Positions 3,090 through 46,595 of a DNA stretch of 64,000 nt are shown here, piece by piece. Made by a program: the position numbers and the translations under genes. The stretch is taken from NCBI RefSeq assembly GCF_030384885.1, contig NZ_CP128615.1; one strand, 5' to 3'. The DNA is from Escherichia coli (lineage in GTDB: Bacteria > Pseudomonadota > Gammaproteobacteria > Enterobacterales > Enterobacteriaceae). The notes under the pieces are model-generated. The model was not told where the DNA came from. It did no database searches and saw nothing but the letters and a program-made list of their open reading frames with translations. The first letter of the stretch is position 1. Each line of letters starts with the position of its first letter.

Positions 3090-3130
3090 TCCCGTAATAA
3101 TTTCCGTGACGGAGACGACAGACATGAATG

Positions 3131-26342: not shown

Positions 26343-26373
26343 CCCGCATGGCATAGGCCTATCGTTTCCACGA

Positions 26374-27573: not shown

Positions 27574-27619
27574 GTCTGGCCTCCGGACCAGCCTCCGCTG
27601 GTCCGATTGAACGCGCGGA

Positions 27620-27672
27620 TTCTTTATCACTGATAAGTTGGTGGACATATTATGTTTATCAGTGATAAAGTG
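27620..27672. promoter_or_regulatory. tetA/tetR divergent promoter with two tet operator palindromes
   Basis: TTTATCACTGATAAG and TTTATCAGTGATAAAG palindromes in the tetA-tetR intergenic region. Confidence 0.6.
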
Positions 27673-27678
27673 TCAAGC

Positions 27679-28329: not shown

Positions 28330-28627
28330 TCAGGACCGCTGCCGGAGCGCAACCCACTCACTACAGCAGAGCCATGTAGACAACATCCCCTCCCCCTTTC
28401 CACCGCGTCAGACGCCCGTAGCAGCCCGCTACGGGCTTTTTCATGCCCTGCCCTAGCGTCCAAGCCTCACGGCCGCGCTCGGCCTCTCTGGCGGCCTTCT
28501 GGCGCTCCTGCTGCGGCGTCCGCTCGTGGGCCGTGGCGCGGGTCCGCGCGCCGGCCTCGTGCGCCTGGCGCTCGCGGGCGAGGTCCAGGGCGGCCGTCTT
28601 CACGTTCTGCCTTGCGCAGATGAGATA

Positions 28628-28665
28628 GGGGAGCCCGCAGAATTCGGAAAAAATCGTACGCTAAG
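28628..28665. repeat. Tn1721 internal 38-bp inverted repeat (end of the Tn1722 core)
   Basis: GGGGAGCCCGCAGAATTCGGAAAAAATCGTACGCTAAG; tnpA stop lies inside it. Confidence 0.8.
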
Positions 28666-31627
28666 GTTTTCCGGGCATCCGTAAGGGCCGAAACTTCCCG
28701 TCTTCCAGTCTGCGGCTCTGCCGCCAGACGTAATCGCCGGTTAGGTTGATGTGCTCCCAGCCCAGCGGCGACAGGAATTGCAGCAGCTCGCCGTCCACCG
28801 GCTTGCCGGCCTCGACCAACCCCTGGGTGGCGCGTTCCAGGTACACCGTGTTCCACAGCACGATAGCCGCCGTCACCAGGTTGAGGCCGCTGGCCCGGTA
28901 GCGCTGCTGCTCGAAGCTCCGATCCCTGATTTCCCCAAGGCGGTTGAAGAACACCGCCCTGGCCAGCGAGTTGCGCGCCTCACCTTTGTTCAGGCCGGCA
29001 TGCACGCGGCGGCGCAGTTCAACACTTTGCAGCCAGTCCAGGATGAACAGCGTGCGCTCGATCCGGCCCAGCTCGCGCAGGGCCACGGCCAGTCCGTTCT
29101 GGCGCGGGTAGCTGCCGAGCTTGCGCAGCATCAGCGAGGCGGTGACGGTGCCCTGCTTGATCGAGCTGGCCAGGCGCAGGATGTCGTCCCAGTGGGCACG
29201 CACGTGCTTGATGTTCAGGGTGCCGCCGATCAGCGGGCGCAACGTCGGGTAGGCTTGCACGCCCTGCGGCACGTACAGCTTGGTTTCGCCGAGGTCGCGG
29301 ATGCGCGGCGCGAAGCGGAAGCCTAGCAGGTGCATCAGGGCAAAGACGTGATCGGTGAAGCCGGCCGTGTCGGTGTAGTGCTCCTCGATCCGCAGGTCGG
29401 ACTCGTGGTACAGCAGGCCGTCGAGCACATAGGTGGAATCGCGGACGCCGACATTCACCACGCGGGTGCTGAACGGCGCGTACTGGTCGGAGATATGGGT
29501 ATAGAACAGCCGTCCCGGCTCGCTACCGTACTTCGGGTTGACGTGCCCGGTGCTCTCGCCCCGGCCACCCGCGCGGAAGCGCTGGCCATCGGAGGATGAG
29601 GTCGTGCCGTCGCCCCAGTGGGCGGCAAAGGCGTGGCGATACTGGTGGTTGACCAGCTCGGCCAAGGCCGCCGAATAGGTTTCGTCGCGGATGTGCCAGG
29701 CTTGCAGCCAGGACAGCTTGGCGTAGGTCAGGCCGGGGCTCGACTCGGCCATCTTGGTCAGCCCGAGGTTGATCGCATCACCGAGGATTGCGGACAGCAG
29801 CAACGTCCTGTCTTTGGCCTCGGCCCCGTCCTTCAAGTGGGTGAAGTGGCGGCTGAAGCCCGTCCAGTCGTCCACGTCCATCAGCAGTTCGGTGATCTTG
29901 ATGCGCGGCAGTAACTGGCTGGTTTGGTCGATCAGCGCCTGCGCCCGATCCGGCACCGCCGCATCCAGCGGGGTGATTTTCAGCCCTGACTCGGTGAGGA
30001 TGGCATCGGGCAGCTCGTTGTCCTTGGCCAGGCGGGTGACGGTGGCCAACTGCTCGTCCAGCAGCTGCAAACGCTCTTCCAGGTACTGGTCGCTGTTCGG
30101 GTTGATCGCCAGGGGCAGGGCCTGCTCGCGCTTGAGTGCGGCGAACTTCTCGGCCGGCAGCAGGTAGTCGTCGAAGTCGCGGAACTGCCGCGAGCCCTTG
30201 ACCCAGATGTCGCCGGAGCGCAGGGCGTTCTTCAGCTCGGACAGGGCGCAGATTTCGTAGAATTTCCGGTCGAGGCCTTCCGGGGTGATCACCAGCGGCT
30301 TCCAGCGCGGCTTGATGAAGGCCGTGGGTGCATCGGCCGGCACCTTGCGCAGGTTGTCGGCGTTCATCTCACGCAGGGTCTGCACGGCTGCCAGCACGCC
30401 TTGCGCGGCCGGCGCGGCGCGCAGTTCCAGCACCTCCAGCAAGGCCGGCGTGTAACGGCGCAGGGTGGCGAAGTTCTCGCCGACCAGGTGCAGGTGGTCG
30501 AAGCCTTCCGGCCGGGCCAGCAGCTCGGCCTCGCTGACGCTCTCGGTGAACTCGTCCCAGGGAATCACCGCCTCGATGGCGGCATAGGGGTCGCTGCCGC
30601 TTTCCTTCGCTTCCAGCAGCGCCTGGCCGATCCTGGAGTACAGGCGCACCTTGTCGTTGATCGCCTTGCCCTGCTTCTGGAACTGCTGCTGATGCTTGTG
30701 CTTCGCGCCGCTGAACAGCTTGACCAGGATGCGGTCATGCAGATCGACCAGCTCATCGATCACGGTCGCGGTGCTCTCCAGCACCACGGCGGCCAGGGTC
30801 GCGTAGCGGCGCTGCGGCTCGAACTTACCGAGGTCTTTGGGCGTCATCTGCCCACCCTCGCGGGCCAGCTTGAGCAGGCGGTTCTGGTGGATGTGCCGGC
30901 CCAGGCCTTCGGGCAAGTCCACCAACTGAAATGTCTTCAGCCGCTCGATGTGTTCCAGCATGTGCCGAGAGTTGGGTTTCAGCGGTGCCTGGCGCAGCCA
31001 GGTCAACCAGGTGATGCTGCTGCCGGCCTTGAGCTTCAACAGCTCGTCCAGCTTGGCCCGATGCGAGTCCGTGAGTGGTTCGACCAGGGCGCGGTAGACC
31101 CGCCGATTGGCTCGCGCAATGGCTTCCGAGCAGGCCCGGTCAATCACGCTCAGCGCCGGCAGGATGCGTCGTTTCTGCCGTAGGCTCTCCAGGGCCTGAC
31201 CGGCCAGCAGCAAGCCTTTGTCGGTCTGCTGGGCCAGCTCGGTTAGCTCGCGCACCAGGGCGCGGAAGTCGGACAGGCCGAACGGGGCCAGTTGCAGGTA
31301 GGTGCGCAGTTCCTGGGCATGCTCGCGACGGGTCACGTCGCGCTCGCCGTACTTTGCCCAGCTCGCCGGCTCGGCCTGGACTTGCTTCGCCACCCACAGG
31401 ATGACCGGCTCGGGCAGCTCGCTGTCGGTTCCCAGCGCGTAACCGGGGTAGCGCAGCAGGCAGAGCTGCACGGCGAAGCCGAGGCGGTTGGCGTCGCCGC
31501 GTCGCTGGCGGATCAGCGACAGGTCGGAGTCGTTGAAGGTGTAGTAGCGGATCAGGTCATCCTGGCTTTCCGGCAGCGCAAGCAGGGTGTCCCGCTCCGT
31601 GGCCGAGAGGATCAAGCGACGCGGCAT
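28661..31627 (-). CDS. tnpA: Tn21-subgroup Tn3-family transposase TnpA (Tn1721)
   Basis: 988 aa [31 protein letters not shown]... ending ...LTGDYVWRQ... Confidence 0.9.
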
Positions 31628-31630
31628 GTG

Positions 31631-32191
31631 TCAGTCGTCCGTGCGGAGGTACTGGTAGAGGGTTTCCCGGCTGATGTTGAACTCGCGGGCAAGCTGCGCC
31701 TTGGGCTCGCCGGCCGTCGCTCGCTGCCGCAGGGTAGCAGCCTGCTCATCGGACAGGGCTTTCTTGCGGCCCCGGTACGCGCCACGCTGCTTGGCCAAGG
31801 CGATGCCCTCACGCTGCCGCTCGCGGATCAGGGCGCGCTCGAACTCAGCGAAGGCCCCCATCACCGACAGCATCAGGTTGGCCATCGGCGAGTCCTCGCC
31901 AGTGAACACCAGGCCCTCCTTCAGGAACTCGATGCGCACGCCGCGCTGAGTCAGCTTCTGTACCAAGCGACGCAGGTCATCGAGGTTGCGGGCCAGCCGA
32001 TCCATGCTGTGCACCACCACTGTATCGCCTTCGCGGACGAAGCTCAGCAGCGCTTCGAGCTGGGGGCGCTGGGTGTCCTTGCCCGATGCCTTGTCGGTGA
32101 ACACCTTGCTCACCTGGGTTTGTTCCAGCTGGCGTTCCGGGTTCTGGTCAAAGCTGCTGACCCGGACGTAGCCGATGCGGTGCCCCTGCAC
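31631..32191 (-). CDS. tnpR: Serine resolvase TnpR (Tn1721)
   Basis: 186 aa MQGHRIGYVRVSSFDQNPERQLEQ... with catalytic serine region and C-terminal HTH. Confidence 0.9.
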   Translation of the reverse strand: MQGHRIGYVRVSSFDQNPERQLEQTQVSKVFTDKASGKDTQRPQLEALLSFVREGDTVVVHSMDRLARNLDDLRRLVQKLTQRGVRIEFLKEGLVFTGEDSPMANLMLSVMGAFAEFERALIRERQREGIALAKQRGAYRGRKKALSDEQAATLRQRATAGEPKAQLAREFNISRETLYQYLRTDD

Positions 32192-32499
32192 GATGTCTCC
32201 TTGGTTGAAGGCGGCTTAAGTGCACTTTCTGTTCCGTTGTGCCTCAAAGCCCATTTCTGTCAGGCTGAAATCTATAACCTTCGCGGGCATGTGTCAAAAA
32301 ATGGGAAAGCAGACTCTATTCTGACGAAGCGGCGCGCCCTGCCTGACATCAAGTTAGGGTATAGCCTAGATTGACATGCGCGATGCAACCCTTAACTTGC
32401 TTGCACCTATCGTTTCCATGCTAGCTTTATCGTAACGCTCAAGAAATTGGGCTTAATGCCGAAAACAATAAAATAAAACAGCCAACCCTTGAGGTTCTT

Positions 32500-34077
32500 A
32501 TGCGCCAGAATTTACCAGTGACGGGTCGAAACTTAGAACTCCCAAAAGATGCCAATATTCTTTCGACTACCTCCCCTCAAAGCCATATCACGTACGTTAA
32601 TCCTGACTTCATTAAAATCAGTGGTTTCACTGAGGAAGAACTATTAGGCCAGCCTCACAACATCGTAAGACACCCAGATATGCCGCCTGCTGCATTTGAG
32701 CATATGTGGAGTACATTAAAATCTGGCCGCTCATGGATGGGGCTAGTAAAAAATCGCTGTAAAAATGGCGACCACTATTGGGTAAGTGCTTATGTAACGC
32801 CAATAGCTAAGAATGGTTCGATTGTTGAATACCAGTCTGTAAGGACCAAGCCTGAACCTGAGCAGGTTTTGGCTGCGGAAAAATTATATGCTCAATTGAG
32901 AAGCGGGAAGGCCGCGAGGCCGAAATTGGCTGCTAGCTTTTCCGTGAAAATACTCTTGCTCATATGGGGTAGTATTATATCAAGCGCAATGGCTGCCGGC
33001 ATGCTTACTGATACATCAATAAGCAGCTTATTGTTAGCCACTTTAATGTCAGGAAGCTTAAGCTCTGTTAGTGTTTTGGCTATTCTCTCTCCTCTTGGAA
33101 GACTGGTTGAAAGAGCCAGGAATATTTCCAATAACCCATTAAGTCAATCCCTCTACACTGGGCGCACCGATGAGTTTGGCCAAATAGAGTTTGCTTTACG
33201 AATGATGCAAGCTGAAACAGGCGCCATAGTAGGTCGCATAGGTGATGCATCAAATCGGCTTAGCGAACACACCCGAGGCCTACTAAAGGATATTGAGTCA
33301 AGCAATGTACTTACAGTTGAGCAGCAGGCAGAGACAGATCAAATAGCAACGGCAGTAAACCAAATGGTGGCAAGCATTCAAGAGGTTGCGAGCAATGCAC
33401 AGCATGCTGCAGATGCGGCCGGAAGAGCAGACACTGAGACGGCATCTGGCCAGCGTCTGGTAGCCCACACAAGCCAGTCAATCACTGCCCTTGAAGGTGA
33501 AATTAGGCAAGCCACTCAGGTTATTCATGAGCTTGAAGGTCAAAGTAACGAGATATCAAAAGTTCTTGACGTTATACGAGGGATCGCCGAGCAAACGAAT
33601 TTGTTGGCACTCAACGCAGCAATTGAGGCCGCGCGTGCTGGTGAGCAGGGGCGTGGTTTTGCTGTTGTCGCCGATGAGGTTCGCAGTCTTGCTGCTCGCA
33701 CACAGCAATCGACAACGGATATTCAAAGCATGATCAGCGCTCTACAAGAGCGAGCGCAATCCGCTGTTACAGTCATGGAGCAAAGTAGTCGGCAAGCGCA
33801 CACGAGTGTAGCTCACGCAGAGGAAGCAGCTACAGCTCTTGATGGAATTGGCCAACGCGTTAACGAAATTACCGACATGAACGCGCAAATAGCGACTGCG
33901 GTCGAGCAGCAGGGAGCAGTAAGTGAAGACATAAACCGCAGTATTATCAATATACGCGATGCTGCTGATACCAATGTACAGACCGGGCAGAATAATTTGC
34001 AAAGTGCGAAATCTGTCGCTCAGTTAACTAGCGCTCTGAGCGAACTGGCAAAACAGTTTTGGGAAAAACGAGGATAA
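32500..34077 (+). CDS. Methyl-accepting chemotaxis-like protein (Tn1721 orfI / mcp)
   Basis: 525 aa with PAS-like N-terminus, two hydrophobic segments and a C-terminal MCP signalling domain ([30 protein letters not shown]). Confidence 0.8.
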
Positions 34078-34228
34078 CGCTTTTCAGTATCTCGACAGGG
34101 ATAACTTACTTTACCATCGGTTATCCCTTTTAGCCGCACAAATTTTAGCCATGGCTTTTCAGGAAGTCAGGGCTATCAGAATGGCCTTAGAAAGCCTAGT
34201 CAAAGAGCTGTCACGAGAACACCGTTAG

Positions 34229-34266
34229 CTTAGCGTACGATTTTTTCCGAATTCTGCGGTTCCCCC
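34229..34266. repeat. Tn1721 outer 38-bp terminal inverted repeat
   Basis: Reverse complement of GGGGGAACCGCAGAATTCGGAAAAAATCGTACGCTAAG. Confidence 0.8.
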
Positions 34267-34300: not shown

Positions 34301-34372
34301 GGTGATGCTGCCAACTTACTGATTTAGTGTATGATGGTGTTTTTGAGGTGCTCCAGTGGCTTCTGTTTCTAT
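34301..34372 (+). mobile_element. IS1 left-end fragment (first 72 bp)
   Basis: GGTGATGCTGCCAACTTACTGATTTAGTGTATGATGGTG... then abuts a Tn3-family inverted repeat. Confidence 0.85.
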
Positions 34373-34806
34373 GGGGTCAGTTTGGATATCGAAAATTATT
34401 GTACGTTAAGGTCGTTTTTTGACCTTTCTACTTTAGCTGGCCTCAGCCGACGAAACTTACCGGAGGCCGGTATTCTGTTGTTTTTCCAGATGTAATCGCC
34501 TGTCAGATTGATATGCTCCCAGCCTAACGGCGACAAATGTGACAGCAGTTGCTCGTTGATCTTCACCCCTTTACGCTTCAGGGCATCGACCGCTCTTTCC
34601 ATATACACTGTATTCCACAGCGAGATAGTTGCTGTCAGCAGCGTCAGTCCACTGGCGCGGTAGCTCTGATTTTCCGGTTTACGATCCCTGATTTCACCCA
34701 GACGGTGCAGGAATACCGCGCGCGCTAGAGAGAGCTCCCATCGCTGCGCGACGGGCCCCAACCGGAGAACCAAGTTAGTTACAGCATTCAGATGAAAATT
34801 CATCAT
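34373..34806 (-). pseudogene. Tn3-family transposon end: 38-bp IR (34373-34410) plus C-terminal fragment of TnpA
   Basis: IR GGGGTCAGTTTGGATATCGAAAATTATTGTACGTTAAG; ORF fragment ...[17 protein letters not shown]...[17 protein letters not shown] matches TnpA C-termini. Confidence 0.7.
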
Positions 34807-35250: not shown

Positions 35251-35335
35251 ATGTGCGGACGTTTTTCTCAGTCTATGACGCGGGAAGAGTATCTTTCTCT
35301 CCTCGCCAATGAAGCCGATCGAAATATTGCCTACG
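35251..35335 (+). pseudogene. N-terminal fragment of an SRAP (YedK/HMCES-like) peptidase gene, truncated by IS903
   Basis: MCGRFSQSMTREEYLSLLANEADRNIAY; the MCGRF N-terminus is the SRAP hallmark; cut at the IS903 end. Confidence 0.5.
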
Positions 35336-35463
35336 GGCTTTGTTGAATAAATCAGATTTCGGGTAAGTCTCCCCCGTAGCGGGTTGTGTTTTCAGGCAAT
35401 ACGCACGCTTTCAGGCATACCTGCTTTCGTCATTTTGTTCAGCGCTCGTACCAGGGCCATAGC
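35336..35463 (-). mobile_element. IS903 right-end segment (part of an IS903 copy split by Tn5393)
   Basis: 128 bp identical to the last 128 bp of IS903 in reverse orientation; continues at 42169-43102. Confidence 0.85.
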
Positions 35464-35496
35464 GGGGTCGTTTGCGGGAGGGGGCGGAATCCTACG

Positions 35497-38382
35497 CTAA
35501 GGCTTTGGCCAGCGATATTCTCCGGTGAGATTGATGTGTTCCCATCCGAGCGGCGAAACATGGGCCAAGAGATCGGGCGATAGCAGCTTTCCATCGCGTT
35601 TCTGGTTTGCAACGACCTCGCCGAGCTTCATGGTGTTCCAGAAGATGATGATGGCGGCGAGCAGATTCATGCCGGCGATGCGGTAATGCTGGCCTTCGGC
35701 GGAACGGTCGCGGATTTCACCGCGGCGGTGGAAGCTGATTGCCCGCTTCAGCGCATGATGAGCTTCGCCTTTGTTGAGCCCGATCTGGGCACGCCGTTGG
35801 AGTTCGGCATCCAGAATCCAGTCGATCATGAACAGGGTGCGCTCGACGCGACCGACTTCCCGCAGGGCTGTCGCGAGCTCGTTCTGCCGCGGATAGGAGG
35901 CGAGTTTCCGCAGAATCTGGCTTGGCGCGACGGTCCCGGCAGCAATGGTGGCGGCGATGCGCAGGATGTCGGGCCAATTGCGCTCGATCATGGCTTGGTT
36001 GACCTTTCCGCCGATCAACGCTCGCAGGTGCGCCGGGGCGGCCGACGGATTGAACGCGTAGAGCCGTTTGGATGGCAGGTCGCGGATGCGCGGAGCGAAC
36101 CGGTAGCCGAGAATGGCACATGCGGCAAAGACGTGATCGGTGAAGCCGCCCGTGTCGGTGAACTGCTCGCGGATATGGCGTCCAGCATCGTTCATCAGCA
36201 GGCCATCGAGGATGTAAGGCGCTTCGCTTGCCGTTGCAGGAATCACCTGGGTTGCGAACGGCGCATATTGGTCGGAGACGTGGCTATAGGCTTTCAGGCC
36301 CGGGGTATTGCCATATTTCGCGTTGACCAGGTTCATGGCCTCACCTTGCTCTGTAGCGACGAAGAACTGTCCGTCGCTCGAAGCCGACGTGCCCATGCCC
36401 CAGAACCGGGCCATGGGTAACGCTGCCTGTGCCTCGACCACCATGGCCAGCGCCCGGTCATAGGCTTCGCCCTCGACATGCCACCGTCCAATGCGGATCA
36501 ATTCCCAGAAGGTGTGGGTGTTTGTCGCATCCGCCATTTTGCGCAAGCCGAGGTTGATCCCTTCCGCCAAGATAACGTTCATTAGCCCGATCCGGTCAGC
36601 GCAGGGTGCTCCTGTGCGCAGATGGGTGAACGCTTCGGTGAAGCCGGTCGCCGCATCCACCTCCAGCAGGAGATCGGTGATGCGCGTGGGCGGGATCTGC
36701 TTGTAGAGATCGAGCACCAGATCTTCGGCGCCTGTCGGCGCGGCGGCTTCGAGTTTCTCGATATGCAGAACGCCGTTTTCAATCGACCCGCCCGGGATCG
36801 TGCCTGCGCGAGCGGCACGGCCAAGCTCGCGCAACCGCATGTCGAGGCGAGCTTGCCGGTCTGCCAGCCATTCCTCCGGCCGCAATGGCACAGCGAGACG
36901 ACCGCCTTCCGCGATGGATTGTGCCGGAACGAGTGCGTGTTTCAGATCGCCATAGCGCCGGGACCTAGTAAGCCAGACATCTCCGGAGCGGAACGCATCG
37001 CGCAGATGGAACAGCACCGCGATCTCCCATAGGCGAGCGTCGCCAGCCCTCTGGGCCCGAAGGTGGCGATGCCATTTCGAGCTGGGCCGCAAGAAGCTGG
37101 TCATCGCGGCATCGTTCAAACCGGTACGAAGGGCCGTCACCGCTTCCAGAAGCGGCAGTGCAACGGGCGCAGCTCGCAGATCGAGCAGGCGCAACATGCG
37201 TGGAGCGTATCGGCGGAAGCGGTGATAACCGTCGAGCACATGATTGAGCGGATCGTCGGCCATGGTGGCGGTCAGCCTGGTTGCCATTGCAACAAGGGTT
37301 TTTAAGCCGTCCCACCCTGACCCACTCGCGATGACATCGCCCAGCGGCTGGCCATCATCCTGTGCATCGACCAGGGCGCCCCCGATCTCGGCGAAGGATT
37401 TCAGGGTGTCACGCACCACCCCCGCTTCGTCTGCGACCTTTGCATGGCAAATACGCTCCGAAGCACGGTAGAGACGGCCGACGATCCGGTCGTGGGTTTC
37501 GACCACTGCGTCGGCCAACATCGCCTGCCATTCCGAGACGCAAACAGCCAAGATCGCAAGCCGCCTGTCCTCCGGGAGATCGCGCATGCCGTCGGCATAA
37601 TACCGTTCACCCTGCCTGCGCAGACGAGTCACCCGATGGGCAGGAACGCCGGCAAGCAGATCCTCGGGGAGATCGATGCGTTGCAGATATTCGAGCCGGT
37701 CGAGCAGCCGGTTGGCCGACGAAGAGTTCGAGCCAGGCTCGAACTGGCGCAGCCACACAAAACGGGTCACCCGATCATCAGCCGTCTCCTCGAGCAATGC
37801 CAGCAACTGTTCTCGGATCGACATAGGCAGCCGACTGGCGATCCTCGTCTCGATGCGTCGCTCGGCATCGACGAGAGCCGCGGCACAAAGCCGCTCGATC
37901 GTGGATGTCGCGGGAAGGACAGTGCGGGTGCGTCGGCACTCGGCTACGAAGCGACGGGCGATATCCTCGTTCGACACCGCCATCTCGGCTTCTCGGAACA
38001 ACCATTCCTTCAGCTCGCTCGCACCACGTCCGGAGAAGGTGCGGAAGCCGTAGAGCCCCCGTAACTCGGCAAGATGCTCGTGCCGTGTTTCCTCGCGGGC
38101 AGCATAGTCTACGAGATCGTCGGCACCCAGGCCAAGCTGCGCTCCGATAAATTCGATGACCTCTGCAGGGATCAGTTCGCCTGGAGCCAGCACCCGGCCG
38201 GGATAGCGCAGGACACACAATTGCAGGGCGAAGCCGAACCTGTTGTGAGCGCGCCGACGCAGCCTGATATGCCCAAGGTCTTCATCACTCAGCGTATAGT
38301 GCTTGAGCAAATCCGTCTGTGAAGTCGGCAAGCGCAACAGCGCGTCTTTCTGCCGATCGGTTAGAGTGACGCGACGCGGCAT
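35497..38382 (-). CDS. tnpA: Tn3-family transposase TnpA (Tn5393)
   Basis: 961 aa MPRRVTLTDRQKDALLRLPTSQTDLLKHYTLSDEDLG... Confidence 0.9.
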   Translation of the reverse strand: MPRRVTLTDRQKDALLRLPTSQTDLLKHYTLSDEDLGHIRLRRRAHNRFGFALQLCVLRYPGRVLAPGELIPAEVIEFIGAQLGLGADDLVDYAAREETRHEHLAELRGLYGFRTFSGRGASELKEWLFREAEMAVSNEDIARRFVAECRRTRTVLPATSTIERLCAAALVDAERRIETRIASRLPMSIREQLLALLEETADDRVTRFVWLRQFEPGSNSSSANRLLDRLEYLQRIDLPEDLLAGVPAHRVTRLRRQGERYYADGMRDLPEDRRLAILAVCVSEWQAMLADAVVETHDRIVGRLYRASERICHAKVADEAGVVRDTLKSFAEIGGALVDAQDDGQPLGDVIASGSGWDGLKTLVAMATRLTATMADDPLNHVLDGYHRFRRYAPRMLRLLDLRAAPVALPLLEAVTALRTGLNDAAMTSFLRPSSKWHRHLRAQRAGDARLWEIAVLFHLRDAFRSGDVWLTRSRRYGDLKHALVPAQSIAEGGRLAVPLRPEEWLADRQARLDMRLRELGRAARAGTIPGGSIENGVLHIEKLEAAAPTGAEDLVLDLYKQIPPTRITDLLLEVDAATGFTEAFTHLRTGAPCADRIGLMNVILAEGINLGLRKMADATNTHTFWELIRIGRWHVEGEAYDRALAMVVEAQAALPMARFWGMGTSASSDGQFFVATEQGEAMNLVNAKYGNTPGLKAYSHVSDQYAPFATQVIPATASEAPYILDGLLMNDAGRHIREQFTDTGGFTDHVFAACAILGYRFAPRIRDLPSKRLYAFNPSAAPAHLRALIGGKVNQAMIERNWPDILRIAATIAAGTVAPSQILRKLASYPRQNELATALREVGRVERTLFMIDWILDAELQRRAQIGLNKGEAHHALKRAISFHRRGEIRDRSAEGQHYRIAGMNLLAAIIIFWNTMKLGEVVANQKRDGKLLSPDLLAHVSPLGWEHINLTGEYRWPKP

Positions 38383-38507
38383 ACATGTTCCTTTTTCAAA
38401 ATCTGATAGCGTTCAAGACGCTTTGTTTATGAAGCTGGTTGAGATACATTTCCAGAGGTCAATGCAATCGTGGCCGAAGCGCCGCCTCAAACCAACGTTT
38501 GTGATAC

Positions 38508-39122
38508 ATGCTGATCGGATATGCCCGCGTCTCCAAAGCCGATGGCTCGCAGTCTCTCGACCTGCAGCACGACGCCTTGCGCGCCGCAGGTGTCGAACGG
38601 GACAATATCTATGATGATCTTGCTTCCGGCGGTCGTGATGATCGCCCTGGCTTGACTGCCTGCCTCAAGTCATTGCGTGACGGCGATGTGCTGGTGGTCT
38701 GGAAGCTCGATCGCCTCGGACGATCGCTTGCCCATCTGGTCAACACGGTGAAGGAGCTGTCAGACCGCAAGATCGGCCTGCGGGTTCTGACTGGAAAGGG
38801 CGCTCAGATCGACACCACGACTGCGTCCGGTCGCATGGTGTTCGGAATCTTCGCCACCTTGGCCGAGTTCGAGCGGGATCTGATCCGAGAGCGCACCATG
38901 GCGGGTCTCGCCTCCGCGAGAGCGCGCGGTCGCAAGGGCGGACGAAAATTCGCGCTCACCAAAGCTCAGGTGCGTCTCGCGCAAGCCGCCATGGCCCAGC
39001 GCGATACTTCAGTTTCCGATCTCTGCAAGGAACTCGGCATCGAGCGCGTCACTCTCTACCGATATGTCGGTCCCAAAGGCGAGCTCAGAGACCATGGAAA
39101 GCATGTTCTCGGACTTACGTAG
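38508..39122 (+). CDS. tnpR: Serine resolvase TnpR (Tn5393)
   Basis: 204 aa MLIGYARVSKADGSQSLDLQHDALRAAGV... Confidence 0.9.
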   Translation: MLIGYARVSKADGSQSLDLQHDALRAAGVERDNIYDDLASGGRDDRPGLTACLKSLRDGDVLVVWKLDRLGRSLAHLVNTVKELSDRKIGLRVLTGKGAQIDTTTASGRMVFGIFATLAEFERDLIRERTMAGLASARARGRKGGRKFALTKAQVRLAQAAMAQRDTSVSDLCKELGIERVTLYRYVGPKGELRDHGKHVLGLT

Positions 39123-39165
39123 TGGACTTGCCTCGGTTTCGTTCCGGTCTTTTTGAGAGCATTAT

Positions 39166-39462
39166 TTGTTATCAAGGAGACCATATATGTCATTAAAGCA
39201 TAGTGATGAATTTAAGCGTGATGCAGTTCGCATAGCACTCACTAGTGGCTTAACACGCCGTCAAGTTGCGTCAGATTTAAGTATTGGGCTTTCCACGCTT
39301 GGGAAATGGATCGCATCAATTTCCGATGAAACTAAAATTCCTACCCAAGACACTGATCTTCTGCGTGAGAATGAACGTTTACGCAAAGAGAACCGTATCC
39401 TTCGGGAGGAGAGGGAGATATTAAAAAAGGCAGCAATATTTTTCGCAGTACAAAAGCTGTGA
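39166..39462 (+). CDS. IS1133 transposase OrfA
   Basis: ...MSLKHSDEFKRDAVRIALTSGLTRRQVASDLSIGLSTLGKWI... Confidence 0.8.
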   Translation: MLSRRPYMSLKHSDEFKRDAVRIALTSGLTRRQVASDLSIGLSTLGKWIASISDETKIPTQDTDLLRENERLRKENRILREEREILKKAAIFFAVQKL

Positions 39463-40316
39463 GATTTCAGTTTATTACGGATTACCGTGGCTCTCTCTCA
39501 CGTTCACGCATATGTCGTTTGATGGGCGTAACAGATCGTGGTTTACGTGCATGGAAACGCCGTCCTCCATCACTGCGCCAGCGTCGTGATCTTATACTTC
39601 TAGCGCATATACGTGAGCAGCATCGGTTGTGTTTGGGGAGCTATGGTAGGCCGCGTATGACAGAAGAGTTGAAAGCGCTGGGCCTGCAGGTTGGGCAGCG
39701 TCGGGTTGGACGTTTGATGCGCCAGAATAACATTACAGTTGTTCGAACGCGTAAATTCAAACGGACAACGGATAGTCATCATACCTTCAACATTGCACCG
39801 AACCTATTAAAACAAGACTTTAGCGCAAGCGCACCCAACCAGAAATGGGCAGGCGATATCACTTATGTTTGGACCAGAGAAGGATGGGTCTATCTTGCTG
39901 TTATCCTTGACCTGTATTCCCGTCGCGTGATTGGCTGGGCAACAGGTGATCGATTAAAGCAGGATCTTGCATTAAGGGCACTGAATATGGCGTTGGCTTT
40001 ACGCAAACCACCACCGGGTTGTATTCAACACACAGACCGTGGGAGCCAATATTGCGCTCATGAATATCAAAAGCTACTGCTCAAACATCAATTGCTGCCG
40101 TCCATGAGCGGGAAAGGCAATTGTTTTGATAACTCCGCAGTAGAAAGCTTCTTTAAATCATTAAAGGCTGAGTTGATTTGGCGCAGACACTGGCAAACAA
40201 GGCGAGATATTGAGATTGCAATCTTCGAATATATAAATGGCTTTTATAATCCACGCCGAAGACATTCAACACTCGGCTGGAAATCGCCGGTGGCATTTGA
40301 GAAAAAAGCCGCTTAA
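39459..40316 (+). CDS. IS1133 transposase OrfB (DDE)
   Basis: 285 aa with DDE-region motifs (WAGDITYVWT...DLYSRRVIGW...HTDRGSQY). Confidence 0.85.
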   Translation: MRFQFITDYRGSLSRSRICRLMGVTDRGLRAWKRRPPSLRQRRDLILLAHIREQHRLCLGSYGRPRMTEELKALGLQVGQRRVGRLMRQNNITVVRTRKFKRTTDSHHTFNIAPNLLKQDFSASAPNQKWAGDITYVWTREGWVYLAVILDLYSRRVIGWATGDRLKQDLALRALNMALALRKPPPGCIQHTDRGSQYCAHEYQKLLLKHQLLPSMSGKGNCFDNSAVESFFKSLKAELIWRRHWQTRRDIEIAIFEYINGFYNPRRRHSTLGWKSPVAFEKKAA

Positions 40317-40422
40317 AATGAGAGATAGACCGGAACACAACCGGTGCAAGTCCATAGCAACTCGTTTCTTTTCGCAGGTTGAGCCACCTCCGCGCTTCAT
40401 CAGAAAACTGAAGGAACCTCCA

Positions 40423-41226
40423 TTGAATCGAACTAATATTTTTTTTGGTGAATCGCATTCTGACTGGTTGCCTGTCAGAGGCGGAGAATCTGGTGATTTT
40501 GTTTTTCGACGTGGTGACGGGCATGCCTTCGCGAAAATCGCACCTGCTTCCCGCCGCGGTGAGCTCGCTGGAGAGCGTGACCGCCTCATTTGGCTCAAAG
40601 GTCGAGGTGTGGCTTGCCCCGAGGTGATCAACTGGCAGGAGGAACAGGAGGGTGCATGCTTGGTGATAACGGCAATTCCGGGAGTACCGGCGGCTGATCT
40701 GTCTGGAGCGGATTTGCTCAAAGCGTGGCCGTCAATGGGGCAGCAACTTGGCGCTGTTCACAGCCTATCGGTTGATCAATGTCCGTTTGAGCGCAGGCTG
40801 TCGCGAATGTTCGGACGCGCCGTTGATGTGGTGTCCCGCAATGCCGTCAATCCCGACTTCTTACCGGACGAGGACAAGAGTACGCCGCAGCTCGATCTTT
40901 TGGCTCGTGTCGAACGAGAGCTACCGGTGCGGCTCGACCAAGAGCGCACCGATATGGTTGTTTGCCATGGTGATCCCTGCATGCCGAACTTCATGGTGGA
41001 CCCTAAAACTCTTCAATGCACGGGTCTGATCGACCTTGGGCGGCTCGGAACAGCAGATCGCTATGCCGATTTGGCACTCATGATTGCTAACGCCGAAGAG
41101 AACTGGGCAGCGCCAGATGAAGCAGAGCGCGCCTTCGCTGTCCTATTCAATGTATTGGGGATCGAAGCCCCCGACCGCGAACGCCTTGCCTTCTATCTGC
41201 GATTGGACCCTCTGACTTGGGGTTGA
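40423..41226 (+). CDS. strA: Aminoglycoside 3''-phosphotransferase APH(3'')-Ib
   Basis: TTG start; NRTNIFFGESHSDWLPVRGGESGDFVFRRGDGHAFAKIAP...; 267 aa; stop overlaps strB start. Confidence 0.95.
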   Translation: MNRTNIFFGESHSDWLPVRGGESGDFVFRRGDGHAFAKIAPASRRGELAGERDRLIWLKGRGVACPEVINWQEEQEGACLVITAIPGVPAADLSGADLLKAWPSMGQQLGAVHSLSVDQCPFERRLSRMFGRAVDVVSRNAVNPDFLPDEDKSTPQLDLLARVERELPVRLDQERTDMVVCHGDPCMPNFMVDPKTLQCTGLIDLGRLGTADRYADLALMIANAEENWAAPDEAERAFAVLFNVLGIEAPDRERLAFYLRLDPLTWG

Positions 41227-42062
41227 TGTTCATGCCGCCTGTTTTTCCTGCTCATTGGCACGTTTCGCAACCTGTTCTCATTGCGGACACCTTTTCCAGC
41301 CTCGTTTGGAAAGTTTCATTGCCAGACGGGACTCCTGCAATCGTCAAGGGATTGAAACCTATAGAAGACATTGCTGATGAACTGCGCGGGGCCGACTATC
41401 TGGTATGGCGCAATGGGAGGGGAGCAGTCCGGTTGCTCGGTCGTGAGAACAATCTGATGTTGCTCGAATATGCCGGGGAGCGAATGCTCTCTCACATCGT
41501 TGCCGAGCACGGCGACTACCAGGCGACCGAAATTGCAGCGGAACTAATGGCGAAGCTGTATGCCGCATCTGAGGAACCCCTGCCTTCTGCCCTTCTCCCG
41601 ATCCGGGATCGCTTTGCAGCTTTGTTTCAGCGGGCGCGCGATGATCAAAACGCAGGTTGTCAAACTGACTACGTCCACGCGGCGATTATAGCCGATCAAA
41701 TGATGAGCAATGCCTCGGAACTGCGTGGGCTACATGGCGATCTGCATCATGAAAACATCATGTTCTCCAGTCGCGGCTGGCTGGTGATAGATCCCGTCGG
41801 TCTGGTCGGTGAAGTGGGCTTTGGCGCCGCCAATATGTTCTACGATCCGGCTGACAGAGACGACCTTTGTCTCGATCCTAGACGCATTGCACAGATGGCG
41901 GACGCATTCTCTCGTGCGCTGGACGTCGATCCGCGTCGCCTGCTCGACCAGGCGTACGCTTATGGGTGCCTTTCCGCAGCTTGGAACGCGGATGGAGAAG
42001 AGGAGCAACGCGATCTAGCTATCGCGGCCGCGATCAAGCAGGTGCGACAGACGTCATACTAG
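41226..42062 (+). CDS. strB: Aminoglycoside 6-phosphotransferase APH(6)-Id
   Basis: MFMPPVFPAHWHVSQPVLIADTFSSLVWKVSLPDGTPAIVKG...; 278 aa. Confidence 0.95.
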   Translation: MFMPPVFPAHWHVSQPVLIADTFSSLVWKVSLPDGTPAIVKGLKPIEDIADELRGADYLVWRNGRGAVRLLGRENNLMLLEYAGERMLSHIVAEHGDYQATEIAAELMAKLYAASEEPLPSALLPIRDRFAALFQRARDDQNAGCQTDYVHAAIIADQMMSNASELRGLHGDLHHENIMFSSRGWLVIDPVGLVGEVGFGAANMFYDPADRDDLCLDPRRIAQMADAFSRALDVDPRRLLDQAYAYGCLSAAWNADGEEEQRDLAIAAAIKQVRQTSY

Positions 42063-42131
42063 ATATCAAGCGACTTCTCCTATCCCCTGGGAACACATCA
42101 ATCTTACCGGAGAATATCGTTGGCCAAAGCC

Positions 42132-43070
42132 TTAGCGTAGGATTTCGCCCTCTCCCGCAAACGACCCCATAGCCTCCGCAACCTGACCATCGTAGTCACG
42201 CAGCGTCAGTGAACCCCCGAACAGCTGTTTTACCCGGTACATCGCCGTTTCCGCTATCGAGCGACGGTTGTAATCTGTTGTCCATTTCCACCGCGCATTA
42301 CTCCCGGTCATTCGCTGATTAGCCACTGCACGGTTACGGTCTGCATATTCACCGGGCCAGTAACCCGCACCTTTTCGGGGAGGGATAAGCGCGCTGATTT
42401 TCTTACGCCGCAGTTCATCGTGACAGAGCCGGGTGTCGTAAGCGCCGTCTGCCGATGCTGCCCTGATTTTTCTGTGAGTCTGCCGGATAAGACCCGGGAA
42501 GGCTTCTGAGTCCGTCACATTGTTCAGCGACAGGTCTGCACAGATGATTTCATGTGTGTTGCTGTCAACTGCCAGATGCAACTTTCGCCATATACGACGG
42601 CGTTCCTGGCCATGCTTTTTGACTTTCCACTCGCCTTCACCAAAGACCTTCAGCCCGGTGGAATCAATCACCAGATGCGCGATTTCACCCCGGGTGAACG
42701 TTTTGAAACTGACGTTAACCGACTTTGCCCGCCTGCTGACACAGCTGTAATCCGGGCAGCGTAGCGGAACGTTCATCAGAGAAAAAATGGAATCAATAAA
42801 GCCCTGCGCAGCGCGCAGGGTCAGCCTGAATACGCGTTTAATGACCAGCACAGTCGTGATGGCAAGGTCAGAATAGCGCTGAGGTCTGCCTCGTGAAGAA
42901 GGTGTTGCTGACTCATACCAGGCCTGAATAGCTTCATCATCCAGCCAGAAAGTTATGGAGCCACGGTTGATGAGGGCTTTATTGTAGGTGGGCCAGTTGG
43001 TTATTTTGAACTTTTGCTTTGCCACGGAACGGTCTGCGTTGTCGGGAAGATGCGTGATCTGATCCTTCAA
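42132..43070 (-). pseudogene. IS903 transposase, C-terminus replaced by Tn5393 insertion
   Basis: 312-aa ORF identical in most of its length to the other IS903 transposases but ending ...AEAMGSFAGEGEILR inside the Tn5393 IR. Confidence 0.8.
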
Positions 43071-43102
43071 CTCAGCAAAAGTTCGATTTATTCAACAAAG
43101 CC
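42169..43102 (-). mobile_element. IS903 left-end 934 bp (remainder of the IS903 copy split by Tn5393)
   Basis: Includes transposase ORF 42132-43070 whose last codons now read into the Tn5393 inverted repeat; terminal IR ends at 43102. Confidence 0.85.
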
Positions 43103-43406
43103 CATTCAGTCCTCAATTTGTGCATTTTTTAAACGAAAAAAGGGTGTCTAATACGGTGAAATCATAGTATTACCAAAGTAATAAATAAAAAGTTATTTAA
43201 ATCAGTAATTTAGATTTGATTTGTAATACCTGGGTAATACCGCAGCATGGCTAAATTTTGTTTTTTTTCTTTTAAATCAGTGCGATAGCGTGATTTATCA
43301 CGCTGCGTTAGGTGTATAGCAGGTTAAGGGATAAAAAATCATCTTTTTTTGGTAGGGCGATCTCCGTAGGTTAAGGGGCATTTGGCTAAAAAGCGTCCTA
43401 TTCTTT

Positions 43407-43430: not shown

Positions 43431-43440
43431 TGAGCAACCA

Positions 43441-43592
43441 AAAACTACAGATAAACTACAGATAAACTACAAAAAACGTTTTGCCTTAGTGTTGTAAGAC
43501 TACAAATAGACTACAATAAAACTACAAATAAACTACAAAAAACGTGACAGACTACAAATAGACTACAATAAAACTACAGATAAACTACAAAA
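43441..43592. repeat. Eleven 11-bp direct repeats (consensus about RACTACARWTA) in three clusters; centromere- or iteron-like
   Basis: aaactacagat x2, aaactacaaaa, gactacaaata, gactacaataa, aaactacaaata ... in helical phase (11-bp period). Confidence 0.7.
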
Positions 43593-43650
43593 CTCGATTG
43601 ACCCCTTCTTACGAGTGTTGTAGAGTCATTTTCATACAACGGAGGGGGTT

Positions 43651-43830
43651 ATGAATAAACCAGCAGATCTGAAACCCCGCAACTTATCGGCTGCTGTCAG
43701 ATTGCGCCTAAATGAAATCGAGAACTGGCTGGACAGAGGGCTAACGCGGCATGAAATTGCTGAAATCCTCGACAGCGAATACAGCTTTTCGGTAACAGCC
43801 AAAGGGCTTGAGATGGATGGCACTGTATAG
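43651..43830 (+). CDS. Small hypothetical DNA-binding-like protein (59 aa)
   Basis: GGAGGGGG RBS then MNKPADLKPRNLSAAVRLRLNEIENWLDRGLTRHEIAEILDSEYSF...; below the 60-aa cutoff of the ORF track. Confidence 0.35.
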   Translation: MNKPADLKPRNLSAAVRLRLNEIENWLDRGLTRHEIAEILDSEYSFSVTAKGLEMDGTV

Positions 43831-44124
43831 AACGCGGCAAAACCGAAAAAATGTATTGCACAATACGCATGATAAGAGTAGCGCGAAGGGTGCAGCGGAA
43901 AGTGTATTGCACAATACACAACCGTCTGAGCCTGAAGTGCAGGAAAGTAAAAAAGCAGAGAGTCCCGGCATTATTGATAAAGAATTCTTCAAGAAAATCG
44001 GTGAGAATTTCGACCCTAAGAAGTTCAACAAAAAATTCTGAGGTGATTTATGAAAGTAGCGGTAATTAATTACAGTGGCAGTGTTCGTAAAACCTTAATT
44101 TCATCTTACCTGTTAGCCCCGCGC

Positions 44125-45181
44125 GGCTTTGTTGAATAAATCAGATTTCGGGTAAGTCTCCCCCGTAGCGGGTTGTGTTTTCAGGCAATACGCACGCTTT
44201 CAGGCATACCTGCTTTCGTCATTTTGTTCAGCGCTCGTACCAGGGCCATAGCCTCTGCAACCTGACCATCGTAGTCACGCAGTGTCAGTGAACCTCCGAA
44301 CAGCTGTTTTACCCGGTACATCGCCGTTTCCGCTATCGAGCGACGGTTGTAATCTGTTGTCCATTTCCACCGCGCATTACTCCCGGTCAGCCGCTGATTC
44401 GCAACAGCACGGTTACGGTCTGCATATTCACCGGGCCAGTAACCCGCGCCTTTTCGGGGCGGGATAAGCGCGCTGATTTTCTTACGCCGCAGTTCATCGT
44501 GACAGAGTTGGGTGTCGTAAGCGCCGTCTGCCGATGCTGCCCTGATTTTTCTGTGAGTCTGCCGGATAAGACCCGGGAAGGCTTCTGAGTCCGTCACATT
44601 GTTCAGCGACAGGTTTGCACAGATGATTTCATGTGTGTTGCTGTCAACTGCCAGATGCAACTTTCGCCATATACGACGGCGTTCCTGGCCATGCTTTTTG
44701 ACTTTCCATTCGCCTTCACCAAAGACCTTCAGCCCGGTGGAATCAATCACCAGATGCGCGATTTCACCCCGGGTGAACGTTTTGAAACTGACATTAACCG
44801 ACTTTGCGCGCTTGCTGACACTGGTGTAATCCGGGCAGCGCAACGGAACATTCATCAGTGTAAAAATGGAATCAATAAAACCCTGTGCAGCCCGCAGGGT
44901 CAACCTGAACACGCGTTTAATGACCAGAACGGTGGTGATGGCGAGATCAGAATAGCGCTGAGGTCTTCCCCGTGATGAAGGCGTTGCCGACTCATACCAG
45001 GCCTGAATAGCTTCATCATCCAGCCAGAAAGTTATGGAGCCACGGTTGATGAGGGCTTTATTGTAGGTGGGCCAGTTGGTTATTTTGAACTTTTGCTTTG
45101 CCACGGAATGGTCTGCGTTGTCGGGAAGATGCGTGATCTGATCCTTCAACTCAGCAAAAGTTCGATTTATTCAACAAAGCC
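44125..45181 (-). mobile_element. IS903, intact copy, no target-site duplication
   Basis: Terminal IRs present; transposase 44181-45149; flanking 9-mers differ. Confidence 0.9.
44181..45149 (-). CDS. IS903 transposase
   Basis: 322 aa [33 protein letters not shown]... Confidence 0.9.
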   Translation of the reverse strand: MKDQITHLPDNADHSVAKQKFKITNWPTYNKALINRGSITFWLDDEAIQAWYESATPSSRGRPQRYSDLAITTVLVIKRVFRLTLRAAQGFIDSIFTLMNVPLRCPDYTSVSKRAKSVNVSFKTFTRGEIAHLVIDSTGLKVFGEGEWKVKKHGQERRRIWRKLHLAVDSNTHEIICANLSLNNVTDSEAFPGLIRQTHRKIRAASADGAYDTQLCHDELRRKKISALIPPRKGAGYWPGEYADRNRAVANQRLTGSNARWKWTTDYNRRSIAETAMYRVKQLFGGSLTLRDYDGQVAEAMALVRALNKMTKAGMPESVRIA

Positions 45182-45673
45182 GTCTGTGTTGTAAAATGGC
45201 GCCGAAAGCCCGGCGTAGCCGGTTGCCGGGCTATAAATTCTGCCACCCTACCCCCTGCCCTGATTAGCCTTAACTCGCGAACAGCAATGAAGAAGTCAAA
45301 GTAATCCCTTTTAACCCCGGTGAGCGGGCTTTACGGCGTTTACGACGTAAAGGGCGTGATTTCCGGGGCCTAAGCGGCGGCAGCTTGCTGCTGACGCTTA
45401 GGGGGATGTTCATCAACTATTTCAGCGACACCAGGGAACTTAACACGGTAGCTGCAAAGCCCTAATCCCGCTCACCGCCACGCAGCTGCCGTACGTCCCC
45501 CACGGGGGTGCGCAGTGCTGCGCGCGGGAACGGCGGCCCGTCTGCGGGACGCGGCGCCGTACTGCGCGTTAGCGGCCGCACGCGGCCGGTTACGGGGGAC
45601 ACTCCGCCATACGACCAGCGACCCGCTGAGCTGCACAATCCACAGATAACACAAGCTACATACATGTCGATAT

Positions 45674-46245
45674 GGGAATCGGCCCACCTTGCCGGGCGCC
45701 GGTGCCGTGTGGAAATCCGCCCACCTTGCCGCGCGCCGGTGCCGTGTGGGAATCCGCCCACCTTGCCGCGCGCCGGTGCCGTGTGGGAATCCGCCCACCT
45801 TGCCGGGCGCCGGTGCTGTGTGGAAATCCGCCCACCTTACCGGGCGCCGGTGCTGTGTGGAAATCCGCCCATCTTGCCGGGCGCCGGTGCCGTGTGGGAA
45901 TCCGCCCACCTTACCGGGCGCCGGTGCCGTGTGGGAATCCGCCCACCTTACCGGGCGCCGGTGCCGTGTGGGAATCCGCCCACCTTACCGGGCGCCGGTG
46001 CTGTGTGGAAATCCGCCCACCTTGCCGCGCGCCGGTGCCGTGTGGGAATCCGCCCACCTTGCCGCGCGCCGGTGCCGTGTGGGAATCCGCCCACCTTGCC
46101 GGGCGCCGGTGCTGTGTGGAAATCCGCCCACCTTACCGGGCGCCGGTGCTGTGTGGAAATCCGCCCATCTTGCCGGGCGCCGGTGCCGTGTGGGAATCCG
46201 CCCACCTTACCGGGCGCCGGTGCTGTGTGGAAATCCGCCCATCTT
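45674..46245. repeat. Tandem array of about 15.5 copies of a 37-bp repeat (GAATCCGCCCACCTTGCCGCGCGCCGGTGCCGTGTGG with point variants)
   Basis: Contiguous head-to-tail repeats without spacers; downstream of a truncated repA paralog, i.e. in the position of an incC/incA-type iteron array. Confidence 0.85.
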
Positions 46246-46292
46246 CATGACAAAAATTTGTCAAATGACAGGCTCATGTGTGCTGATTTATG

Positions 46293-46595
46293 TCAGACGG
46301 GATTTTGCTTATCAATTATTGAGAACAGAAATTTTCCTGAATCATCAATACTATACTTAGCAAGTAAAGGTGTTTTCTCATTTATCTGCTTGAGTGCAGG
46401 ATCAAGGAAAGATCGTTTCAACTCTGCCAAGTTCTTCTGCTGGGATTCCGGTAAGACGAAACGGTCATTTAACCAAGCATGAGTAGTAACCCATAAGCCT
46501 GAAGATTTGAATTGAGCAAGACTTTCATAAAGGCGGATCGTCCGGGGATTTCGAAGACTGCCACAATCGCGGAGCGAGTAGGTGGTGAACTGGTT
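46293..46595 (-). pseudogene. C-terminal fragment of a second Rep_3-family RepA, truncated by IS1
   Basis: Minus-strand translation ...YSLRDCGSLRNPRTIRLYESLAQFKSSGLWVTTHAWLNDRFVLPESQQ... aligns with the C-terminus of the intact RepA at 54177-55043. Confidence 0.6.

Follow-up and report, generated by a model that had tools for sequence, protein, structure and literature searches.

A complete Tn5393 carrying IS1133 nested within an IS903-group element on an Escherichia coli multiresistance plasmid

Introduction

The Tn5393 transposon of plasmid pEa34 from Erwinia amylovora was reportedly described by Chiou and Jones in 1993. This element is listed as GenBank M96392, and Tn5393 of E. amylovora is a 6.7-kb member of the Tn3 family that contains IS1133 (PMC10333595). 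In IS-free Tn5393, strA-strB are transcribed from the tnpR promoter located in res, on which TnpR acts as a repressor (PMC9330008); insertion elements increase resistance relative to the IS-free transposon (PMC10333595). IS1133 is absent from Tn5393c and from Tn5393a of Pseudomonas syringae plasmid pPSR1 (NC_005205.1). The elements IS903 and IS903B, of the IS5 family, are 1057 bp long, end in perfect 18-bp repeats (GGCTTTGTTGAATAAATC) and encode an IS5-family DDE transposase.

Here we analyse a stretch of 64,000 nucleotides from an E. coli plasmid (contig NZ_CP128615.1), hereafter the window, in which a Tn5393 lies inside an IS903-group element. Compared by description, this copy and Tn5393 of pEa34 are alike in their 6.7-kb size, their gene order (tnpA-res-tnpR-IS1133-strA-strB, with res putative in the window), their 81-bp inverted repeats, their 5-bp target duplications and the position of IS1133 between tnpR and strA. 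They differ in location: an enterobacterial IncR-type plasmid carries the copy in the window, within an IS903-group element. The region is the well-known Tn5393, with its usual IS1133 passenger, inside IS903 on a resistance plasmid; as hundreds of public plasmid sequences already contain its junctions, it is ordinary and already known.

Results and discussion

The Tn5393 backbone and its resistance genes

The transposon and the unit containing it comprise the following features.

35336-43102: IS903::Tn5393 unit, 7767 bp
35459-35463: left ATAGC target-site duplication, 5 bp
35464-42168, + strand: complete Tn5393 with IS1133, 6705 bp, delimited by length and ends
35464-35544, + strand: terminal inverted repeat, tnpA side, 81 bp, matching 42088-42168 at 77 of 81 positions
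35497-38382, - strand: tnpA, Tn3-family transposase, 961 aa, intact (NF033527, full-length, 1022 bits against a cutoff of 500)
38383-38507: tnpA-tnpR intergenic region, putative res site and divergent promoters (from its position between divergent genes; role from the literature)
38508-39122, + strand: tnpR, predicted serine resolvase, 204 aa, intact (serine-recombinase family matches)
40423-41226, + strand: strA, aph(3'')-Ib, 267 aa, TTG start, intact (NF032895, 637.7 bits against a cutoff of 600)
41226-42062, + strand: strB, aph(6)-Id, 278 aa, intact (NF012171, APH(6)-I family, 385.9 bits against a cutoff of 325)
42088-42168, - strand: terminal inverted repeat, strB side, 81 bp, pairing with 35464-35544
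42169-42173: right ATAGC target-site duplication, 5 bp

The original prediction of a strA-strB transposon bounded by 81-bp inverted repeats and flanked by ATAGC on both sides is borne out by the sequence, and the coordinates and lengths that it gave all proved correct. The terminal repeats start with GGGGTC, and their similarity ends at position 81. Assignment to Tn5393, a Tn3-family transposon with strA-strB, is established by the NCBIfam matches and by alignment to Tn5393a of pPSR1, a reference comparison that had been proposed as a check: 5466 of 5470 positions outside IS1133 are identical, and the four differences all fall in tnpA. The pPSR1 element is flanked by its own 5-bp duplication, TGAAT, instead of the ATAGC found here. 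The tnpR gene, which diverges from tnpA and in relatives bears the label recombinase family protein, is 100% identical at the DNA level to that of pPSR1, as are strA and strB. With IS1133 included, the 6705-bp transposon is 100% identical to that of pTRE-1611 (KX863570.1).

The passenger genes strA and strB adjoin the right inverted repeat, and the strB ATG overlaps the strA TGA stop codon by one base (41226). As judged from its genes, the module is predicted to confer streptomycin resistance through APH(3'')-Ib (strA) and APH(6)-Id (strB). The region is best annotated as a Tn5393 (with IS1133) that is complete and probably competent for transposition, lying within a disrupted IS903B-like element.

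The interrupted IS903-group element

Three IS903-group copies, designated A, B and C, are relevant here.

35336-35463, - strand: copy A, IRR-side arm, 128 bp, ending in the left ATAGC (18-bp inverted repeat at 35336-35353)
42169-43102, - strand: copy A, IRL-side arm, 934 bp including the duplicated ATAGC (18-bp repeat and reconstruction)
42132-43070, - strand: truncated copy A transposase frame, 286 native and 11 foreign residues (NF033579, model positions 1-279 of 289)
44125-45181, - strand: copy B, intact, in the same orientation as copy A; the uninterrupted comparison within the window
23487-24543, + strand: copy C, intact, inverted relative to copies A and B

Perfect 18-bp IS903 ends are present at 35336-35353 (+) and 43085-43102 (-), with an expectation of 0 in shuffled sequences. 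When Tn5393 and one ATAGC are removed, 35336-35463 joins 42174-43102 to form a 1057-bp IS903-group element whose full length matches uninterrupted copies in at least six public plasmids at 100% identity. This alignment, also suggested beforehand as a check, upholds the proposal that the flanking sequences are two parts of a single IS903. ATAGC occurs once at the matching position of intact copy B. Since the reconstruction with a single ATAGC is 100% identical to intact copies, ATAGC represents a genuine target-site duplication rather than a coincidental 5-mer. The intact copies identical to the reconstruction are annotated by PGAP as IS903B family; IS903-group, or IS903B-like, is consequently a more exact name than the IS903 used in the original prediction.

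Copy A differs from IS903 and IS903B in being interrupted 128 bp from one end and in lacking a 9-bp duplication. The C-terminal truncation of its transposase, likewise foreseen, amounts to 21 residues of the 307 present in the intact protein; these are replaced by GSFAGEGEILR, encoded in the Tn5393 inverted repeat. Copies B and C, which the original prediction did not mention, carry full-length transposase frames.

Instead of a 9-bp duplication, copy A is flanked by TTGCCTACG on the left and CATTCAGTC on the right. It follows that at least one outer flank is not original and that the history in this replicon involved more than two simple insertions. The absent duplication suggests that a rearrangement came later; it is no argument against placing copy A in the IS903 group. 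Displaced 9-bp duplications were not found among the flanks of copies A, B and C, even when inversion was allowed. A BLAST extension had equated the flank of an IS903 fragment at 3121-3130 with the flank at 43103-43111, but this candidate was dismissed, the sequences themselves being only partially similar. Copies A and B differ at 40 positions, none of them within the first 131 bp, which raised the idea of a hybrid IS903 with a left arm from another isoform. The idea was rejected: all three copies share the 128-bp end at 100% identity, and the joined arms match intact copies at 100%.

IS1133 and the expression of strA-strB

The following features belong to IS1133.

39123-40354, + strand: IS1133, IS3 family, 1232 bp, delimited by imperfect inverted repeats (TGGACTTGC...) and empty-site reconstruction
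39166-39462, + strand: orfA, 98 aa, intact (NF033516, N-terminal part)
39459-40316, + strand: orfB, 285 aa, DDE part, intact (NF033516, 337 bits, model positions 90-369)
40290-40319, + strand: candidate sigma-70-like hexamer pair GTGGCA-18-TAAAAT in the right end, facing strA (consensus scan)

The original prediction gave IS1133 a length of 1232 bp and a position directly after the tnpR stop codon, and both are exact. The tnpR TAG stop (39120-39122) was the target of the insertion: the first base of IS1133 follows it directly, and TAG recurs at 40355-40357 as a 3-bp duplication. Removal of IS1133 and one TAG restores a tnpR-strA junction that matches the IS-free Tn5393a of pPSR1 base for base, and over 180 bp the reconstructed empty site and IS-free Tn5393 variants show 100% identity (at least 80% of the query is covered in 428 records). 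An identical element is labelled IS1133 by PGAP in relatives. An AAAAAAG slippery motif, of the A6G frameshift type, lies within orfA at 39423-39429.

Following the literature proposal that the original prediction cited, transcription of strA-strB here would probably depend on an outward promoter in the right end of IS1133, because IS1133 separates these genes from the TnpR-repressed tnpR promoter. In the consensus scan, the promoter signal in this right end did not rise above chance (one site against 2.3 expected).

Distribution of the module among plasmids

Among PLSDB plasmid records, at least 196 contain the left junction and at least 127 contain the right one. Five aligned records have the two 40-bp junctions on one strand at a distance of exactly 6705 bp: pTRE-1611 (KX863570.1), MT136605.1, pYLMB52a (CP073944.1), pYUSHP29-1 (CP087281.1) and pKP037-1 (CP089871.1). 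These carry the same module at 99.99-100% identity, with IS1133 at the same site. In six of six further sampled plasmids, from Klebsiella, Salmonella, Citrobacter and Raoultella, the outer flank upstream of the left junction (34627/34727-35335) is kept, which indicates a single origin. Given this recurrence of the junctions, and their 6705-bp spacing in five records, the sequences indicate what would be one old insertion event, the product of which has since been disseminated among plasmids of the IncR, IncFII(K) and IncN types. Two records that appeared to represent module copies without IS1133 at the same IS903 site were rejected; the PLSDB gene table is incomplete for them, and the spacing shows that IS1133 is present. 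A search for the 30-nt left junction in GTDB representative genomes returned 0 matches, an uninformative result because species representatives rarely carry such plasmids.

In all four of the module records aligned across the right IS903 arm (KX863570.1, MT136605.1, CP073944.1 and CP087281.1), this arm is shortened, ending at 42232, at 42474 beside IS26, or at 42843, where a Tn1721 inverted repeat cuts it. In contrast, the arm in the window reaches its full end at 43102. The closest overall relative of the window is the IncR plasmid of E. coli AR_0011 (NZ_CP024857.1), with about 50 kb in common at 99.3-100% identity. It has both junctions and a complete right IS903 arm with the stbA-side flank; its Tn5393 is split within tnpR, with IS26 beside the break, and is partly inverted, and a group II intron is present in its IS1133. 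The unusual completeness of the module in the window, together with the missing IS903 duplication, are its only local peculiarities. The original prediction had mentioned neither this missing duplication nor the wide dissemination and prior sequencing of the module. In the open-access literature, an explicit published description of the IS903::Tn5393 junction was not found, only general statements, and the same holds for the IS1133 promoter.

Origin of the nested arrangement

We consider it about 95% probable that the region consists of three known mobile elements, nested on an IncR-type multiresistance plasmid, and that it arose by one insertion of Tn5393 into IS903. The IS903-group element (IS903B-like, 1057 bp) would have been resident in a small SRAP/YedK-like gene. 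Tn5393, with IS1133 already between tnpR and strA, would then have entered that element by transposition, at 128 bp from one of its ends. Strand transfer by TnpA with the family-typical 5-bp stagger, followed by resolution of the cointegrate by TnpR at res, would have yielded the ATAGC duplication. Such an insertion would cost the IS903 transposase frame its final 21 codons and leave the Tn5393 genes and IS1133 all intact. Later, the module would have been spread and cut up among enterobacterial plasmids by recombination, IS26, Tn1721 and other elements. The acquisition of IS1133 before the insertion into IS903 is inferred solely from the presence of IS1133 at the same site in every sampled copy of the module.

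The missing 9-bp duplication could also be accommodated if the insertion had happened elsewhere and the left and right arms had been rejoined by homologous recombination, either within Tn5393 or between IS903 copies. The three copies in the window offer substrates for such exchange, and the left arm, the same in all of them, is not assignable to one isoform. Right arm fates vary among relatives (the Tn1721 inverted repeat at 42843, the IS26-adjacent end at 42474 and the end at 42232), and in pAR_0011 the transposon has been split and partly inverted. We nevertheless regard this history as unlikely, as the joined arms match intact copies at 100% over 1057 bp and the two junctions share one IS903 position, where the 5-bp duplication is perfect; even with later recombination, the founding event would be a Tn5393 insertion into one IS903. 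A chimeric assembly joined through repeats is hardly credible. Three IS903 copies and Tn3-family ends do make the region rich in repeats, but the two junctions lie 6705 bp apart in five independently assembled plasmids and each is found in more than 100 records.

Because both 18-bp ends are kept and two intact IS903 copies lie on the same replicon, one may ask whether the 7.8-kb block could be doubly mobile, either as Tn5393 with a 5-bp duplication or as an oversized IS903 with a 9-bp duplication. In the latter case the whole 7767-bp unit would move in one piece on its IS903 ends, with transposase supplied in trans from the full-length frames of copies B or C. This is very improbable. The IS903 transposase acts mainly in cis, the unit has no flanking 9-bp duplication, its outer flank is unchanged in every sampled copy of the left junction, and a search of PLSDB and E. 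coli RefSeq records did not recover the complete unit in another context.

The locus has little importance beyond annotation. It is of modest value as a reference: the module, found in fragments in hundreds of plasmids of the IncR, IncFII(K) and IncN types and also in surroundings reported for tmexCD1-toprJ1, is most complete in this window. For lineage tracing, both junction sequences make handy markers. The same three elements also occur together on IncHI2 plasmids such as p2009_36_HI2 (NZ_MK461930.1), where the nesting is reversed: IS903B lies inside IS1133 within Tn5393, at a position equivalent to 39384-39393 of the window.

Structure of the IS903::Tn5393 module

The original prediction placed Tn5393 with IS1133 inside an IS903 copy at 35336-43102, with a 5-bp ATAGC duplication, and sequence reading together with a coordinate script bore out every number. 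The observation is confirmed and its interpretation supported.

Features of the module (coordinates, strand where assigned, description)
35336-35353 (+) and 43085-43102 (-): IS903 18-bp ends, GGCTTTGTTGAATAAATC (sequence reading and coordinate script)
35459-35463 and 42169-42173: ATAGC direct repeats, adjoining both Tn5393 ends on the outer side
35464-42168: Tn5393, 6705 bp, GGGGTCGTTTGCGG... to ...CCGCAAACGACCCC, between the two IS903 ends
35497-38382 (-): tnpA, Tn3-family transposase, 961 aa, 1022 bits
38508-39122: tnpR, serine recombinase
39123-40354: IS1133, exactly 1232 bp
39166-39462: IS1133 orfA, spanning the IS3-family model jointly with orfB
39459-40316: IS1133 orfB, spanning the IS3-family model jointly with orfA
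40423-41226: strA, APH(3'')-Ib, score exceeding the allele-specific cutoff
41226-42062: strB, APH(6)-I family
42132-43070 (-): truncated IS903 transposase frame, C-terminal end compared with an intact copy

The IS903 end motif occurs seven times in the window, with none expected by chance. The Tn5393 inverted repeats, predicted to be 81 bp long, agree at 77 of 81 positions, and the similarity breaks off directly after position 81. ATAGC is present on both sides as predicted, and only once in the intact IS903 copy B located 1 kb downstream (44125-45181; ...CCAGGGCCATAGCCTCTGC...). Joining 35336-35463 to 42174-43102 yields exactly 1057 bp. From end to end this sequence has 100% identity with uninterrupted elements, labelled 'IS903B family' by PGAP, of at least six plasmid records. 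Because of this identity, the Tn5393 flanks are the halves of one IS903-group element (copy A), and ATAGC is a true 5-bp target duplication of Tn5393. Tn3-family elements transpose replicatively via a cointegrate resolved at res by TnpR, and the anatomy of such an insertion is present here (inverted repeats, 5-bp duplication, intact tnpA and tnpR).

The copy A transposase is C-terminally truncated as claimed, 21 native residues being lost and 11 foreign ones gained relative to an intact copy. Between copies A and B there are 40 differing sites, none of them in the first 131 bp; a hybrid origin was rejected, since the 128-bp end is identical in copies A, B and C (the latter intact and inverted, 23487-24543), which makes that absence of differences uninformative. 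No 9-bp target duplication was found around copy A (TTGCCTACG vs CATTCAGTC), nor around copies B and C. Since copy A is without this duplication, at least one of its outer flanks has been replaced through IS903-associated rearrangement. Copy B splits a ParA-like gene (44051-44124, MKVAVINYSGSV...) after 25 codons, and a 62-bp IS903 end fragment lies at 3131-3192.

We aligned Tn5393 to Tn5393a of Pseudomonas syringae plasmid pPSR1, the reference listed in a review (PMC10333595). Once IS1133 and one TAG are removed, the window copy is 5470 bp, equal in length to Tn5393a, with four differences (two GC/CG swaps); Tn5393a on pPSR1 has its own 5-bp duplication, TGAAT.

IS1133 and strA-strB expression

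IS1133 has the predicted length and position, its first base following the tnpR stop TAG (39120-39122); TAG recurs at 40355-40357. The rebuilt 180-bp empty site (at least 80% covered in 428 records) matches, with 100% identity, IS-free forms of Tn5393 from P. syringae, Aeromonas salmonicida, Corynebacterium striatum and others, which confirms a 3-bp TAG target duplication taking in the tnpR stop codon. A slippery motif, AAAAAAG, lies at 39423-39429 in IS1133.

Chiou and Jones reportedly proposed that IS1133 supplies a promoter for strA-strB. A consensus promoter scan returned a single candidate, GTGGCA-18-TAAAAT at 40290-40319, which precedes the strA TTG start by about 100 bp; the scan gave no signal above chance (1 match vs 2.3 expected), and this lone candidate does not count as evidence for an IS1133 promoter. 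In IS-free Tn5393, strA-strB is driven by the tnpR promoter, which TnpR represses (PMC9330008), and higher resistance is reported from forms with an insertion element (PMC10333595). An in-frame ATG in the right end of IS1133 lengthens the strA frame by 62 codons (40237-41226) without an intervening stop; it is probably unused, because annotation places the start at the TTG (40423).

Spread and integrity of the module

The left junction of Tn5393 with IS903 (120-bp probe) is fully or almost fully covered in at least 196 PLSDB records, and the right junction probe in at least 127. Five aligned records contain both 40-bp junctions in exact form, on one strand and with a spacing of 6705 bp.

Records with both junctions
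MT136605.1: Raoultella
KX863570.1: pTRE-1611, uncultured
CP073944.1: E. coli, poultry, Cuba
CP087281.1: Leclercia, pig feed, China
CP089871.1: Klebsiella, milk

Another six records with the left junction (Klebsiella, Salmonella, Citrobacter and Raoultella; IncR, IncFII(K) and IncN-R plasmids) all share a flank of 600-700 bp beyond the IS903 end. Because the junction spacing is constant in five records and the outer flank is common to six more, the module goes back to a single ancestral insertion that was then disseminated, and not to recurrent insertion or to a unit moved on IS903 ends. All components and exact junctions are already in public data; no paper spelling out the junction was found in the literature searched, and this missing description does not make the module new biology.

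The uninterrupted 35336-43102 block was found in no PLSDB or E. coli RefSeq record. Among relatives, the right IS903 arm ends at 42232, at 42474 (IS26 next) or at 42843 (Tn1721 inverted repeat); in MT136605.1 and CP087281.1 the 38-bp inverted repeat that ends the upstream Tn1721-like module at 34266 is found, in inverted orientation, against copy A (about 42843). In the closest overall relative of the window, E. coli AR_0011 plasmid NZ_CP024857.1, Tn5393 is broken in tnpR next to an IS26 copy and is partly inverted, and its IS1133 contains a group II intron. Because the right arm is cut or Tn5393 split in relatives and the whole block is in no record, the window has the module in its least damaged form. 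At least 19 other plasmids have the right arm complete and at 100% identity, together with the flank on the stbA side. Nesting is reversed in IncHI2 plasmids (NZ_MK461930.1, 7906-8962), where IS903B lies within IS1133 within Tn5393, overlapping by 9-10 bp at the window-equivalent 39384-39393.

Neighbouring features

Directly upstream lies a Tn1721-like tetracycline-resistance module (25208-34266: pecM, tet(A), tetR, tnpA, tnpR, PAS/MCP gene), whose 38-bp inverted repeat ends at 34266; no partner repeat was seen at the 25207 side. At 34301-34730, 74 bp of an IS1 end precede a Tn3-family inverted repeat (GGGGTC...) and a 3' portion (136 aa) of a Tn3-family tnpA, an arrangement that resembles the delta-IS1/delta-TnEc1 'locus B' of IncR plasmid pST1023 (PMC9412624). 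The IS903 end cuts into a small SRAP/YedK-like gene, whose first part lies at 35252-35335 (MCGRFSQSMTREEYLSLLANEADRNIAY); all relatives sampled have this flank at the left junction, and in two of them it neighbours IncFII(K) repA.

Downstream, compared with NZ_CP024857.1, stbA (43651-44041) has the 4 bp GATG duplicated in tandem (about 43812-43819), and the resulting frameshift cuts the protein short at 66 aa. An 11-bp repeat (AAACTACAGAT-like) precedes stbA in about 14 copies at 43440-43600. Two 37-bp tandem repeat arrays occupy 45525-46356 and 53708-54086, the former matching IncN repA-remnant iterons of the 'N region' common in IncR plasmids (PMC9412624), and an IS1 end begins at 46596. The block at about 3975-25207 is 99.99% identical to NZ_CP024857.1, where its counterpart carries annotations of a type 1 BREX defence system (brxC, pglX, pglZ, brxL, DUF262 and WYL genes) and of IS110, IS1 and IS3-family elements.
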